Positions 21,663 to 25,564 of a stretch of DNA of 64,000 nt are shown here, in pieces; the first letter of the stretch is position 1; each line of letters starts with the position of its first letter. A model generated the notes under the pieces. The model did no database searches. It saw nothing but the letters and a program-made list of their open reading frames with translations, and had not been told where the DNA came from. The stretch is from Nitrosopumilus sp. (GTDB lineage Archaea > Thermoproteota > Nitrososphaeria > Nitrososphaerales > Nitrosopumilaceae), in contig CBDBLX010000002.1 in the NCBI GenBank assembly GCA_965207445.1, positions 2,039,849-2,103,848 on the forward strand, written 5' to 3'. Position numbers and translations under genes: made by a program.

Positions 21663-23331
21663 TAGTAATTTCATTAAAGATCCGATAGTTTTTACAGGCG
21701 ATTTCGGCTAGGCAGGCGGGTACGGAGTGGAAAAATAGACGTAATTGGCACTATGTGTAGCAGATACCGTGTGGTAGCCGGAAGAGAGACGAGGAATTGA
21801 GGTGTATATCCAGTGGCATGTATTAAGTAATTTTTGATCAATTGGTTGAATTAATTTGACCTCGAGTGTCAAAAGGCGATGTGGCCATTAGTGTTTGATG
21901 AAAAACGAAAAAATGGTACATCGACTAGTACTCGTCGATGCCATATTTAACGACTCTGCAGGTAGATCGTCTTGCGGCATCGACGAGGTGCGTATTTTTT
22001 GAAGACAGTCTATGTAGAAAGAGGGGACGGGTTCATGCCCGACGTGTCCCTGGAGGATCTAAAAGCCGCCTACCGCAAAGAGCCTCCGGGCAAGTCCCGG
22101 GACAGACTGCAGGCGGCAGTTGGACGAAAAAAGGGCAAGAGTGAGTCTGTAATAGCCGCCCAGCTCGGACGCAGCCAGAGCGTCATATCCGAGTGGCTCA
22201 ACAGGCTACAATCAGAGGGCTTGGAGGGCAGATATGACCGCAAGAGCCCCGGCAGGCCGTGCAGACTCACAAAAGAACAACAAGAACAGGCAAAGGCCGA
22301 TCTGAGTAAAGAGCCGATGCAGTGCGGCTTTGAGCGTGGGACATGGACTGCCGCCTTGTTTGCATTGCATCTGGCAAACATTTTTGACGTCCAGTACACG
22401 TGGACCGGGGCCCTGGCGCTAGCTCACAGGATGGGCTTTTCAATAAGAATGCCCAGGCCAATTCACCACAAGTCTGCCAGTCCATTAGAAGAAATGTATT
22501 ATGTACACGACACAATACGCGCCATCATGGCGCACGCCCGTGCCGGCTACGAGGTGTTCTGTATGGATGCCGCTGCAATCACAAACTCGCCGTATGTCGC
22601 GCGCGGACTACATCTCCGAGGAGGCTCTGAGACTGTAAATGTCAACTTTTCAAAAACAAGCATGAAAATGCTGGGTGCACTCGGGGCCGGTACATGCCAC
22701 CTGCACTTTTGCGACAGTGCGAATACTGTAAACGTCATAAAACTGTTGGAGATGCTCCGAGAAAAGTACGGCAAGGTATTTGTCATATGTGACAATGCAT
22801 CTGCGCACAAGTCCAAAGACATCAAGCAGTATCTGGAACAGGCAAGAGGACAAGTCGCACTATGGTACTTGCCGCCATACACTCCTCAACACAATCCCAT
22901 AGAGATCCAATGGCGTGAGATAAAGCGCGCATTGGCAGGCAGATACTACAAGGGTGGTTTTCCAGAGATTCAAAAGTCCATATTACACATGATGGAAAAA
23001 GGCGAGGTAGGTACAGTCAGACTGCTAGAGTACATGCGCAATGCCATACAAGACGCAAAGAACAACGTGTTAATACCAGAACTCCGGGCTGCATGAACTG
23101 CATATTACGCGAACTAGGTAGGTCCGGGCGAGGCTGTGCGACACACAGATCACACTATGATCAGGACGGCTGCGCACATACCCTTTACCACGTCGAAATA
23201 CATGGCTAGCATGCCCCATGTCCATGGGAAAATCATGGAGCATGTATGGATTACAACATGGGGCCTGGCTGATTTCCCAATATATGATTATAAGAATGTC
23301 TAAAAACTATCGGAACTTTAATGAAATCACT
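21663..23331 (+). mobile_element. TIR-bounded element (family C ends) containing an IS630 transposase
   Basis: tagtaatttcattaaagatccgatagttttt / aaaaactatcggaactttaatgaaatcact(a); terminal base displaced to 24747 by the IS110 insertion. Confidence 0.8.
22035..23096 (+). CDS. IS630-family transposase, apparently intact
   Basis: HTH + GRP motif, WT motif, CMD / CDNASAH / LPPYTPQHNPIE triad; GC-rich. Confidence 0.93.
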   Translation: MPDVSLEDLKAAYRKEPPGKSRDRLQAAVGRKKGKSESVIAAQLGRSQSVISEWLNRLQSEGLEGRYDRKSPGRPCRLTKEQQEQAKADLSKEPMQCGFERGTWTAALFALHLANIFDVQYTWTGALALAHRMGFSIRMPRPIHHKSASPLEEMYYVHDTIRAIMAHARAGYEVFCMDAAAITNSPYVARGLHLRGGSETVNVNFSKTSMKMLGALGAGTCHLHFCDSANTVNVIKLLEMLREKYGKVFVICDNASAHKSKDIKQYLEQARGQVALWYLPPYTPQHNPIEIQWREIKRALAGRYYKGGFPEIQKSILHMMEKGEVGTVRLLEYMRNAIQDAKNNVLIPELRAA

Positions 23332-23464
23332 CCTATGATAACTCCCGAGCGTACGAGTCGTACCTTTCCGATATTTCATCCGTCTCATGACTACCAAGTA
23401 CAGAGTGTAGTTTATAGCTAACGCTAAGGGTTAATCTGTACATATGCATACGCGGCAGATGTGC

Positions 23465-24559
23465 TTATGCCTTGTTCTGTCGTCGTCTCTCCAGCTTGGC
23501 CAATTTGCGCTTGTACAGATCTTCGTTGCGTGACTCGTAGCTAGTATTGTTTTGGAGCATGTGCCACATGATGTTCATCATTTTATTCGCGACTACGACA
23601 ACTGCAAGCGCATGCTTGTCTGCATGTCGTTTGCGTGCTGCTTCGTATGCGGCTTTCATTCTCAGATCATGTCTGGCCGCCACACTGGCAGCCTCACACA
23701 TTATCCAATTTACAAGCCGGTCTGTGCCTGCCTTTTTTATCTTTCCAAGACGCATCTCATTACCTGATTGTCTTATTGTAGGACAGAGCCCCGCCCATGA
23801 GATCATTTGTTTGGGAGTCTCAAACCTCGATATATCCGATATCTCAACTGCCAATAGTATGGCCGCATACGTGCCAATACCTGTCATACTGACAAGCAGT
23901 TTTGCATACTCATTTTGAGCTGCTTCGGCATCCAACTGTTTGTCAGTTTCTACAAGCTCGCTTGTGTAGTGTTTGATTTGTCTTACACACTGCTTTAGTA
24001 CAAAGTTATCCTGTGCATCACCGAGATTGAGAGTGTCCAGATAGAATAGTGCCTTGTGAGAGTACATGTTGGCCGCATGTGCGGCCTTGCCATGGGCATC
24101 AAGCAGGTTGTGTATTTGGTTTATCACCTTGGTTCTTGCCTGTACCAGACGTACATGCTGCCTCACAAGATTCCTAATTGCACGTATGTGCTTTGATGGA
24201 ATGTAACACTCTGGAATGGAATTCATCCTGAGTATCTGTGCTATCTTTTCTGCATCTATCTTGTCAGTCTTTTTTCCAGTCTTGTTAATCAGTGCCATCT
24301 TGTACGAATTGGCAAGCTTGATCGGAATGCCAACATCTTCAAACGCATTAATTGTCGTAATCCACAGGTTAGCTGTGGTCTCGCATGCTGCAGTGCATTT
24401 TCCCATCTTACCATACTTGTCAAGTATGGCGCGTGCACATTGTCTTGCATCCTCTTGCGTGTTAAAGTATTGCCCACGGTCGAGTACCTTGCCCCTATTG
24501 TTAACTACACAATAGTCACACTTTTTCTTGCTAATGTCTATACCTATGCTTATCTTCAT
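23465..24559 (-). CDS. IS110-family DEDD recombinase/transposase
   Basis: GIDIS, CET, KTDKIDA (DEDD), GIG, WAGLCP..QSG (catalytic Ser region); SD-like AGGAGGTGA at 24569-24577. Confidence 0.95.
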   Translation of the reverse strand: MKISIGIDISKKKCDYCVVNNRGKVLDRGQYFNTQEDARQCARAILDKYGKMGKCTAACETTANLWITTINAFEDVGIPIKLANSYKMALINKTGKKTDKIDAEKIAQILRMNSIPECYIPSKHIRAIRNLVRQHVRLVQARTKVINQIHNLLDAHGKAAHAANMYSHKALFYLDTLNLGDAQDNFVLKQCVRQIKHYTSELVETDKQLDAEAAQNEYAKLLVSMTGIGTYAAILLAVEISDISRFETPKQMISWAGLCPTIRQSGNEMRLGKIKKAGTDRLVNWIMCEAASVAARHDLRMKAAYEAARKRHADKHALAVVVVANKMMNIMWHMLQNNTSYESRNEDLYKRKLAKLERRRQNKA

Positions 24560-24591
24560 CCTTTGCTATCACCTCCTGGTCGGATGTCTTT

Positions 24592-24712
24592 TGATGAAAC
24601 GGAAGCTGCATACTCCTATCAGGGCTCGCAGCCCAATCATACAGCAGCTCGGATTGCCCCAATCTATGCAAAGGGAGCATTGTCCCATAGTGATTCAGGG
24701 GTCGATTCATCA
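24592..24712 (-). ncRNA. Predicted bridge RNA (target- and donor-binding loops)
   Basis: 7-bp closing stem with two stem/internal-loop/stem modules whose loops match the insertion site and the element junction. Confidence 0.8.
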
Positions 24713-24901
24713 CTACTAGTACGTAGAGGGGGTTATCATGTATTCTATGCTGTAAACACAACGTTTCACCTGCGACATTTCAGGACTGGAGGATAAATTC
24801 CGGCAGGGTTGTAGGCGGTCGCTGCCAGCCACAGAAACGCTGACAAGAACCATGTCGGCCTTGTAATCTTTCACTAACTTCTCTAAGACACGCATTATTA
24901 A

Positions 24902-25564
24902 TTACTCACACTTCTTTCGAACAATAATTTCCCACTGACTCCATGTGCCGGTTTTTGGTAAAGTTCTTGAATGAACTCTTTCATTTATGGAAATAAGGTC
25001 AAACTCTTTTAACATTTTAATGAGACCGTTACGAGTGAAAAATGACAGCACAAGCCCACATTTTGGACCGGATTCGTACCGTATAGTAATCCCAAATTCT
25101 GTAGTAGATAAAATCGTATGTTCGTGATAAATGGTGGTATTTGATGAATTTATGCGCAAGAAGAATAACCCACCTTTGACAAGTAACTCCTTGACTTTGG
25201 TAAAATTTGCTCGTATTGAATCAAATGTGCCATGTTGAAACACTTGAATTGCAATAAGATAATCAAATGGCTTTTGAGCATTGTAGTGTTCAAATGCAGT
25301 ACATACTAAACGTCCTTCAAGACCAGGTTTCTTTACTAAAAGTTGATTTATGGCTACCATAGAGACATCTATTCCCGTTAAATTCAATCCGTCTTCATAA
25401 AGAGGTATAAAATTACGCCCGTTGCCACACCCCACATACAACCCACATCCACGAAGGGGGGCATATTTTTTGATGTCATAAATAAAATCCACAGATTTGT
25501 CCGACTCATACCTACCAAGTGTATACTCAGTATTCCACCGTTTGGTTAACAGTGGCGGCATCAT
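24902..25564 (-). CDS. Class I SAM-dependent methyltransferase
   Basis: VGCGNGRN, GIDVS, FDYL, LVKGG. Confidence 0.85.
   Translation of the reverse strand: MMPPLLTKRWNTEYTLGRYESDKSVDFIYDIKKYAPLRGCGLYVGCGNGRNFIPLYEDGLNLTGIDVSMVAINQLLVKKPGLEGRLVCTAFEHYNAQKPFDYLIAIQVFQHGTFDSIRANFTKVKELLVKGGLFFLRINSSNTTIYHEHTILSTTEFGITIRYESGPKCGLVLSFFTRNGLIKMLKEFDLISINERVHSRTLPKTGTWSQWEIIVRKKCE

Follow-up and report, generated by a model that had tools for sequence, protein, structure and literature searches.

An IS110-family element at an IS630 terminal repeat

The window, a stretch of 64,000 nucleotides, contains an IS110-family element on the minus strand, with a recombinase gene, a predicted RNA upstream of it and subterminal inverted repeats at its ends. 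The element lies against the terminal repeat of an IS630-family insertion sequence. An earlier sequence-only reading had called the host a thaumarchaeon, which is supported by an archaeal SSU rRNA match and an archaeal AmoA match of 387 bits (AmoA was found in 0 of 14 control genomes). Re-read on the minus strand, the sequence statements of that reading hold where it had placed them. The features are:

21664..23330 (+): IS630-family insertion sequence, ORF 21972-23096, which provides the target in its right terminal repeat
23323..23329 (-): TGATTTC, right half of the target and outer tip of the IS630-family terminal repeat
23330..24746 (-): whole IS110-family element, with one AG core (plus strand CT) per end included
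23335..23346 (-): subterminal inverted repeat of the right side (GGGAGTTATCAT), set 3 nt in from the end
23411..23427 (-): motif TTAGCGTTAGCTATAAA of the non-coding right end, kept in most close homologues
23465..24559 (-): gene of the 364-aa recombinase, whose domains are DEDD (RuvC-like) and Tnp (Pfam PF01548, PF02371)
24592..24712 (-): predicted bridge RNA, 121 nt (covariance model R1, 129 bits; helix covariation)
24610..24621 (-): 3' strand of the donor-binding loop (UGAUAGGAGUAU); AUAGGAG is the last 5 right-end bases plus the core
24635..24643 (-): 5' strand of the donor-binding loop (UGUAUGAUU); UGUAU complements left-end bases 2-6 (ATACA)
24661..24672 (-): 3' strand of the target-binding loop (UUUGCAUAGAUU), the same sequence as the left flank and core, then handshake-like bases
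24687..24697 (-): 5' strand of the target-binding loop (UGAAUCACUAU), complementary to the gene-sense strand over core and right flank
24728..24739 (-): subterminal inverted repeat of the left side (ATGATAACCCCC), set 5 nt in from the end
24747..24750 (-): GCAT, left half of the target, lying beyond the element; the same 4 bases at copy B, GTAT at copy C

Three copies of the element are found in the genome (identity 100, 99 and 97%), hereafter the window copy, copy B and copy C. The extent common to all three runs exactly from AG core to AG core (CT on the plus strand), and the cores enclose 1413 bp of element sequence. Each copy has an AG core at either end, with no duplication longer than this, and the 2-bp core is fixed because uninterrupted GCATAGTGATT sites exist in the same genome; the CT cores earlier proposed as boundaries are thus confirmed. 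On the gene strand, the rebuilt empty site of the window copy is GCAT-AG-TGATT, which occurs uninterrupted 7 times in the genome, against about 1.8 expected from base composition, and 5 of these 7 sites are other ends of the same IS630-type repeat. Two other delimitations, a TA core and an element including GCATAG, were ruled out by the uninterrupted sites and by GGAG at the right end of all three copies. The IS630 ORF encodes Pfam DDE_3 and HTH domains; its terminal repeat occurs about 97-99 times in the genome, and paired repeats lie about 1.65 kb apart at many loci, with TA at both sides.

The recombinase ORF is intact, as had been claimed. Its 364-aa product carries both domains of the IS110 family, the N-terminal DEDD (RuvC-like) domain (DEDD_Tnp_IS110, PF01548; E 1.2e-27, residues 5-155) and the C-terminal Tnp domain (Transposase_20, PF02371; E 1.2e-20, residues 220-306). 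Residues D8, E60, D99, D102 and S265 lie in motifs that align with the ISCro4 and IS621 chains, their catalytic roles being assigned from published IS110-family work, and these two proteins are its relatives in the PDB (ISCro4, E 4.4e-11; IS621, E 2.3e-8). The best matches outside the class are haloarchaeal and rhizobial genes annotated as 'IS110 family transposase' (28-32% identity). A conserved GGAGGTGA stands 9 nt 5' of the recombinase ATG.

A conserved two-loop RNA upstream of the gene

The predicted RNA lies upstream of the recombinase ATG (24559), the left end of the element measuring 185 nt and the right end 133 nt. It is ordered as a closing stem (P1), a target-binding hairpin, a 7-nt linker and a donor-binding hairpin. 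The closing stem has 7 bp (TGATGAA, 24712-24706, with TTCATCA, 24598-24592); loop 1 reads CCCC-TGAATCACTAT-GGGA..TCCC-TTTGCATAGATT-GGGG, and loop 2 reads AGCTGC-TGTATGATT-GGGCT..AGCCC-TGATAGGAGTAT-GCAGCT.

The RNA is present upstream at 25 of the 26 homologous recombinase loci that were given to the covariance model. Across 21 homologues, pairing is kept in 94.2% of cells, against at most 51.5% in slid-register controls, and 17 of 27 base pairs show a compensatory change, a number reached by 0 of 500 shuffles. The closing stem itself covaries (7 of 9 pairs with a compensatory change) and encloses both hairpins, 17 G-U cells are compatible with the gene-sense strand only, and RNAalifold independently gives the same 5 helices. 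The fold of the single sequence is not significant (z = -1.09; 29 of 200 shuffles fold equally well) and does not reproduce hairpin 1 as drawn. The upstream RNA with its 7-bp closing stem and two internal-loop hairpins is thus borne out as a set of conserved, covarying helices, at the compact size that had been proposed (364 aa and about 120 nt); of the checks named in the sequence-only reading, the covariation of homologues spoke for it and the single-sequence fold did not. An Rfam scan of positions 22500-25500 (E up to 1) gave 0 matches, and model R1 gave no match, with filters off and E up to 1, to one haloarchaeal and one Rhizobium locus, taken from the best outside protein matches.

Loop strands follow the flanks and ends of each element

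In the target-binding loop, AATCACT (24695-24689) is the reverse complement of AG plus TGATT, and GCATAG (24669-24664) has the sequence of left flank and core as these stand at the window copy and at copy B. In copy C the loop reads GUAUAG and the adjoining flank GTATAG, just as GCAUAG in the window copy adjoins GCATAG. Family-wide, the left flank agrees with the 3' target guide at 129 of 150 positions (permuted 41.8 +/- 6.1, maximum 73), and the right flank with the 5' target guide at 115 of 182 (permuted 51.1 +/- 6.4, maximum 85). Both scores were equalled by 0 of 100,000 permutations, in which guides were de-duplicated and related elements then treated as independent. Two genomes (G036 and G152) each hold two guide sets, every one of them with matching flanks. 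The claim that loop 1 reads the insertion site is supported, and guide-target covariation, when looked for among homologues, was found for both target strands.

The fit of the window copy itself is less regular on the right. Its 5' target guide agrees at only 3 of 7 positions in the homologues' register; a 1-nt shift raises this to 5 of 7 and adds the core. Of the 9-nt match AATCACTAT, the closing 1-2 bases belong to the scaffold, T being the invariant final base in 21 of 21 aligned homologues. After the core, the bases of the 3' target guide (AA in most homologues) are the first bases of the left end. At the place where one would expect the complement of a TG core, some homologues' 5' guides carry U-A, U-G or C-G instead; as an idea only, these might reflect wobble pairing with the TG core.

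Copies B and C have the same, or nearly the same, loops as the window copy and only the left half-site in common with it, their right flanks agreeing with the 5' guide at only 2-3 of 7 positions. The sequence-only reading had held that identical loops at unrelated sites would speak against guidance. This applies in part here: the copies share the left half of the site and not the right, which speaks against strict two-sided specificity. The flanks of copy B are mixed, with a repeat (X) on the left and the interior of an IS630 element on the right; no orphan right half of repeat X was found when it was sought to explain this copy, and half-match insertion and later deletion could both account for it. 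Half-match insertion is mentioned in the abstract of a 2026 bioRxiv preprint (10.64898/2026.10.21.760802). The empty site of copy C was sought in 40 relatives, with 0 matches.

The donor-binding loop follows the ends in the same manner. Its 3' strand carries ATAGGAG (24619-24613). Of 43 homologue rows, 35 have the 7-mer of their own element at the right end, against 5 of 344 trials with foreign 7-mers. The left end agrees with the 5' donor guide at 100 of 125 positions family-wide (74.8 +/- 3.9, maximum 93), a score that 0 of 100,000 permutations reached; in the window copy this guide spans 5 bases and does not cover the core. All four loop strands thus follow their own flanks or ends across about 30 distinct homologous elements, and the proposal that loop 2 reads the ends and the circle junction, predicted as ...CATAGG-AG-AATACATG..., finds support at the level of sequence. 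The two subterminal repeats match at 11 of 12 positions (mean 9.96 of 12 over 26 homologous end pairs). By inference only, the A/T-rich part of the left repeat is a candidate TATA box, and TTAGCGTTAGCTATAAA is a possible outward-facing promoter box.

A probable bridge RNA and its rivals

We consider it highly probable that this is an autonomous IS110-family insertion sequence of an ammonia-oxidising archaeon, whose 121-nt upstream RNA serves as the bridge RNA of its DEDD and Ser recombinase. The anatomy of the element, the covariation of the RNA structure and that of the guides with flanks and with ends are shown by the analysis. The target loop would pair with both target strands: its 5' strand with the gene-sense strand over core and right flank, its 3' strand with the complement of the left flank and core. 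The donor loop would pair likewise with the right and left ends as they are joined in an excised circle. The point of recombination would be the 2-bp core, which reads AG on the gene strand and CT on its complement. Transcription, binding of the RNA by the protein, the circle intermediate and the catalytic steps may be expected by homology with IS621 and IS1111-type systems. The programmed site would be GCAT-AG-TGATT, which is the tip of the IS630-family terminal repeat with its TA/TGC flank, so the element appears to home to copies of another mobile element. Among bacteria, an IS110/IS1111-type element is also reported to home to the terminal repeat of another mobile element, its target being different from the IS630 repeat seen here.

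The RNA is followed directly, on its own strand, by the conserved GGAGGTGA and the recombinase ATG, as would be expected of a cis-acting 5' mRNA leader that affects only translation or stability; the protein would then pick the site, and the loop matches would come from relatives that share targets. A search for RNA sequencing runs containing the stretch listed none. We regard this as very improbable: the loop strands change with the flanks on an unchanged scaffold, even inside one genome, to a degree that none of the 100,000 permutations attained, and the C-to-U change in copy C, which matches its new flank, is not explicable by shared target ancestry. It is also improbable, if somewhat less so, that the functional molecule is a shorter, processed, seekRNA-like species consisting mainly of the target-binding hairpin, with the ends recognised chiefly by the protein via the 12-bp repeats and the second loop of minor importance. 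Protein recognition of the ends through subterminal repeats has been proposed for IS1111-type elements. The repeats and 7/3 extensions at the ends are of the IS1111 type here, the guide order is that of IS1111, the 5' donor guide is short and misses the core, and Siddiquee et al. (2024, PMC11187229) describe seekRNAs of 70-100 nt as the abundant form in IS1111 and IS110 elements. However, a single covarying closing stem encloses both hairpins, and both donor-loop strands track the ends.

A further question bears on present activity and not on the identity of the element: the family may once have used the RNA while its copies here no longer move, the window copy being a fossil. The 7 perfect target sites in the genome remain unoccupied, copy C carries a frameshift near codon 52, and three remnants of the element lie elsewhere in the genome. 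In four DNA runs from one sample, the contigs contained no circle junction, excised form or empty allele, their loose ends being other genomic copies and other IS630 ends, and read depth fits three chromosomal copies. Against this, ORF and RNA are intact in both the window copy and copy B, which share 99% identity; this favours recent movement, and we hold a fossil state to be rather unlikely. Taken together, the conservation and covariation of the RNA, the tracking of flanks and ends by the guides and the changes within genomes support the overall reading first proposed, that of an IS110-type recombinase with an upstream, two-loop guide RNA.

The bridge-RNA mechanism itself is not new: it has been known in bacteria since 2024, RNAs of the bridge and seek kinds are established, and published surveys already list IS110 recombinases from archaea. 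On comparative evidence, the present element extends bridge-RNA guidance to mesophilic ammonia-oxidising archaea. It offers a compact pair of a 364-aa protein and a 121-nt RNA, whose guides are visibly re-written in nature, and provides a naturally occurring example of a mobile element directed to the ends of a different one, a targeting that shapes the mobile-element load of a genome with about 97 copies of the target repeat.

Comparison with IS621 and IS1111 systems

The element shares much with the bridge recombinases IS621 and ISCro4 and their bridge RNA (Durrant et al. 2024, PMC11208160; Hiraizumi et al. 2024, PMC11208158). Like IS621, it has a DEDD and Ser recombinase and, upstream of the gene, a single RNA with two internal loops, one binding the target and one the donor. 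In each loop the two strands pair with opposite strands of the DNA and meet in an overlap of 2 bp, the core; the handshake-like bases after the core resemble the handshake guides of IS621. However, in IS621 the 5' strand of each loop represents the left target, or the right end, plus core, whereas here the 3' strand does so; with respect to the gene, the order thus runs the other way in both loops, in this element as in its homologues. Subterminal repeats are absent or 2-3 bp long in the IS110 group (IS621 type) and 12 bp long here, and the IS621 RNA has 177 nt and an extra 5' stem-loop, which the 121-nt RNA lacks. The IS621 protein is only distantly related (E 2e-8). The sigma-70 promoter logic of the IS621-type junction cannot apply as such, because the host is archaeal.

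Other traits point to the IS1111 family, whose seekRNA elements include ISEc11, ISKpn4, ISPa11 and ISPst6. According to Siddiquee et al. (2024, PMC11187229), IS1111 elements have perfect or nearly perfect subterminal inverted repeats of 11-13 bp, with which the 12-bp repeats agree, and beyond these a left terminal extension of 7 bp and a right one of 3 bp, matched here by AG plus AATAC (7 bp) and AGG (3 bp) provided that the left core is counted in the element, which is our reading of the convention. In the same paper, the complement of the top strand precedes that of the bottom strand in IS1111 guides, as it does here, and the guide order of ISEc21 falls with that of IS621. Nearly all IS1111 members, with few exceptions, are described there as having their long non-coding region, and with it the RNA, downstream of the recombinase gene, whereas ours is upstream; ISMtsp17, an IS1111 relative, likewise has a long upstream non-coding region, a likeness by description only. 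In many IS1111 RNAs the donor-binding bases are predicted in a multi-loop, and here they lie in a simple internal loop.

Of the earlier likening to IS621 and IS1111 loops, two-loop guidance is upheld; the element is not a plain IS621-like one, because its guide order is reversed and its subterminal repeats are of the IS1111 type. The layout is mixed: the upstream two-loop RNA is that of IS621, and the guide order, 12-bp repeats and 7/3 extensions are those of IS1111. Strand order and ends follow one subgroup and the position of the RNA the other, which bears on the origin of the IS110 and IS1111 subgroups, and Durrant et al. (PMC11208160) proposed that the RNA moved between element ends. One might tentatively speculate, without thinking it the likelier case, that this Nitrososphaeria clade represents a third layout of RNA-guided DEDD recombination, possibly a link between the two groups, which may also run on self-contained archaeal promoter boxes (an A/T box within the left repeat and, in the right end, TAGCTATAAA, which would read across the junction); insertion guided by the left half-site alone may be tolerated, as copies B and C suggest. 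If such a third layout is real, the position of the junction and its polarity relative to the RNA gene can be permuted.

Recombinase, copies and target site

Comparison with homologues gives good support to the view that the IS110-family element (window 23330-24746, minus strand) is a real bridge-RNA system. Its recombinase gene (23465-24559, minus strand) is intact, as the sequence-only reading had proposed for a DEDD and serine recombinase; the 364-aa product carries DEDD_Tnp_IS110 (E 1.2e-27) and Transposase_20 (E 1.2e-20) domains, with the solved recombinases ISCro4 (E 4.4e-11) and IS621 (E 2.3e-8) as distant relatives, and D8, E60, D99, D102 and S265 fall within motifs aligned with these two. 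Relatives occur in 71 of the 401 genomes sampled from the class, a tally that includes the genome of the window (G000) and the unpublished genome G283, used for this tally only. The host is an ammonia-oxidising archaeon, and its genome scores 1453 bits with the archaeal SSU rRNA model and 387 bits with archaeal AmoA, which was found in 0 of 14 control genomes. Two neighbours lie in the window:

21664-23330: IS630-family element (ORF 21972-23096; DDE_3 and HTH domains)
24902-25564, minus strand: class I SAM-dependent methyltransferase-like gene (Methyltransf_25, Methyltransf_12 and Methyltransf_11 matches), adjoining the left flank, outside the element

G000 holds three full copies of the element (the window copy, copy B and copy C; 100, 99 and 97% identity) and one partial, 74%-identical copy. 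On the gene-sense strand (minus in the window) all three full copies begin with AATACATGATAAC at the left end, the RNA side, and finish with GTTATCATAGG at the right end, with AG directly outside either end. To its right, the window copy is flanked by the terminal repeat of the IS630-family element, a repeat present 97-99 times in G000, most often within short derivatives of that element. The uninterrupted site GCATAGTGATT is found 7 times in the genome, against about 1.8 expected, and 5 of the 7 lie at other ends of this same repeat. These sites fix the core at 2 bp, reading AG along the gene and CT on the plus strand, as had been read at the bounds of the element. Contig depth of the element is about three times that of unique flank (112-120 versus 38.6 in X1; four runs, one sample), and no joints of a circle or an empty allele were seen in the contigs of these runs. 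Just outside the IS630-family repeat, sequences in G000 are strongly biased to (A/G)TGCA-TA (G in 77 and C in 81 of 97 places); the cause is either a preference for a palindromic target (TGCA-TA-TGCA) or a repeat that extends further than assumed.

Structure and distribution of the RNA

The 121-nt RNA (24592-24712, minus strand) lies upstream of the gene and contains a target loop and a donor loop. Its initial drawing held on the minus strand: the 7-bp stem that closes it (24712-24706 paired with 24598-24592), the two internal-loop hairpins, and AATCACT, GCATAG and ATAGGAG are all where they had been placed. Single-sequence folding was uninformative (z = -1.09, hairpin 1 not recovered), and Rfam gave no match in window 22500-25500 at E up to 1. 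A search for RNA runs containing the stretch turned up none. Among homologues, the scaffold of the upstream region is conserved and the loops are variable. A five-helix structure on 21 sequences pairs in 94.2% of cells, with compensatory change in 17 of 27 pairs, equalled by 0 of 500 shuffles; slid controls paired in 51.5% or less. RNAalifold, run independently, returned the same helices with 18 of 27 pairs compensatory, and 17 G-U cells in the helices fit the gene-sense strand only.

A covariance model placed the RNA upstream of 25 of the 26 recombinase-relative loci given to it, L054 being the locus without it (the count leaves out L032, L037 and L050, cut by contig ends, and L036, the same as L061). 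In a phylum-wide draw it matched 6 of 151 genomes, namely the window's own, 4 of 19 others of the same family and one from another family; it gave no match at one haloarchaeal and one Rhizobium locus. Homologous locus L069 (G152:C1:1456092-1459129) has a G-rich insertion in the linker between the hairpins (a run of G, then GAGAGGAGGAGG).

Two further motifs were observed:

23411-23427, minus strand: TAGCG(T)TAGCTATAAA with a small hairpin after it, conserved at the right non-coding end in most close homologues
24732-24739, minus strand: A/T-rich stretch within the left subterminal repeat, some 24-27 nt upstream of where the closing stem starts, here and in homologues

The former resembles an archaeal promoter box facing outward and is a candidate for one; in a circular form of the element, transcription from it would cross the junction and enter the RNA. 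The latter is a candidate TATA box, which would allow transcription from integrated copies.

Guides, flanks and ends

We tested guides on 50 aligned matches minus L044, L056 and L086 (without upstream sequence or left-end motif), with left ends placed by means of listed end motifs and right ends by the donor-loop 7-mer. Over 30 distinct guides, the 3' target strand, compared with the left flank at its five non-core bases, was identical at 129 of 150 positions (permuted 41.8 +/- 6.1, maximum 73, with none of 100,000 reaching this score). For the 5' target strand, seven bases were compared with the right flank, and 115 of 182 positions over 26 distinct guides agreed as reverse complement (permuted 51.1 +/- 6.4, maximum 85, again none of 100,000), with 10 rows lacking an exact right-end match omitted and L068 added by hand. 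At left-end bases 2-6, 100 of 125 positions are complementary to the 5' donor strand, versus 74.8 +/- 3.9 permuted. In 35 of 43 rows the 3' donor 7-mer recurs at the right end of its own element, versus 5 of 344 trials with other rows' 7-mers. In the 3' target strand, the core is followed by bases (AA in most homologues) identical to those that open the left end.

Guide changes within genomes agree with the flanks: in copy C, GUAUAG accompanies a GTATAG flank; in the window copy and in copy B, GCAUAG accompanies GCATAG; and in each of the genomes G036 and G152 there are two guide sets whose flanks match them. An identical right flank, CCCAACTCAT, in two distant homologues from different genomes, L051 (G302) and L057 (G205), suggests a shared conserved target. 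Other results complicate a simple reading. In the window copy, the 5' target guide in the family register fits 3 of 7 positions unshifted and 5 of 7 plus the core after a 1-nt shift, and the 5' donor guide does not include the core.

Copies B and C also depart from a simple reading, in that they match the left half-site only, their right flanks fitting the 5' target guide at 2-3 of 7 positions. Copy B has a different repeat (X) as its left flank and, as its right flank, sequence from inside an IS630 gene. The empty site could not be reconstructed from 40 relatives searched for copy C or from an orphan right half of X sought for copy B. Half-match insertion would fit these copies, as the abstract of a 2026 preprint reports for IS621 (insertion at sites matching half of the RNA), and later deletions would fit them as well. 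Repeat X, about 140 bp, abuts copy B (G000:C2:1276531-1276674) and lies in at least 11 places besides this one; GCAT-TA-TGAT is the reading in 6 of 8 other copies, against GCAT-AG-TGAT at the element's site, making X a near-cognate site that differs in the core.

G000 also contains three remnants of related elements:

C2:1978372-1978509
C2:1088809-1088968
C2:1502053-1502148

One keeps the full RNA and a 49-aa gene stub; in its 3' target strand, the AG core and 4 of the 5 non-core bases agree with the left flank of that remnant. Another keeps the RNA and only the start of the gene. The third has an RNA from which the whole target-binding hairpin is missing, and the gene downstream of it contains 4 stops.

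Comparison with known systems

Archaeal IS110 recombinases already figure in published surveys (662 in one; 27 'Archaea' entries, one of them Thaumarchaeota, in another), and a 2026 mining preprint (10.64898/2026.10.21.760802) clusters bridge RNAs at scale; our literature search found no publication that deals with bridge RNAs from Nitrososphaeria. In passages on IS621 (Durrant 2024 PMC11208160, Hiraizumi 2024 PMC11208158), each loop carries, on its 5' strand, the left-target or right-end sequence plus core, and its 3' strand complements the core plus right target or left end. Relative to the gene, this strand order, taken from those passages and the element start in Supplementary Table 1, read by eye, is opposite in both loops to that of our element, whose post-core bases follow the same pattern as the handshake guides in those passages. 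Siddiquee 2024 (PMC11187229) put the top-strand complement first in IS1111 seekRNAs and reverse the order in the IS110-type ISEc21; the clade thus has the IS1111 guide order. Also of IS1111 type are the 12-bp subterminal repeat (11/12 matches; mean 9.96/12 over 26 end pairs) and, provided that the left core is counted, the terminal extensions of 7 and 3 bp. The position of the RNA upstream of the gene and its two simple internal loops are, in contrast, as in the IS110 group, and Siddiquee 2024 also record a few relatives of IS1111 whose non-coding region lies upstream, such as ISMtsp17.
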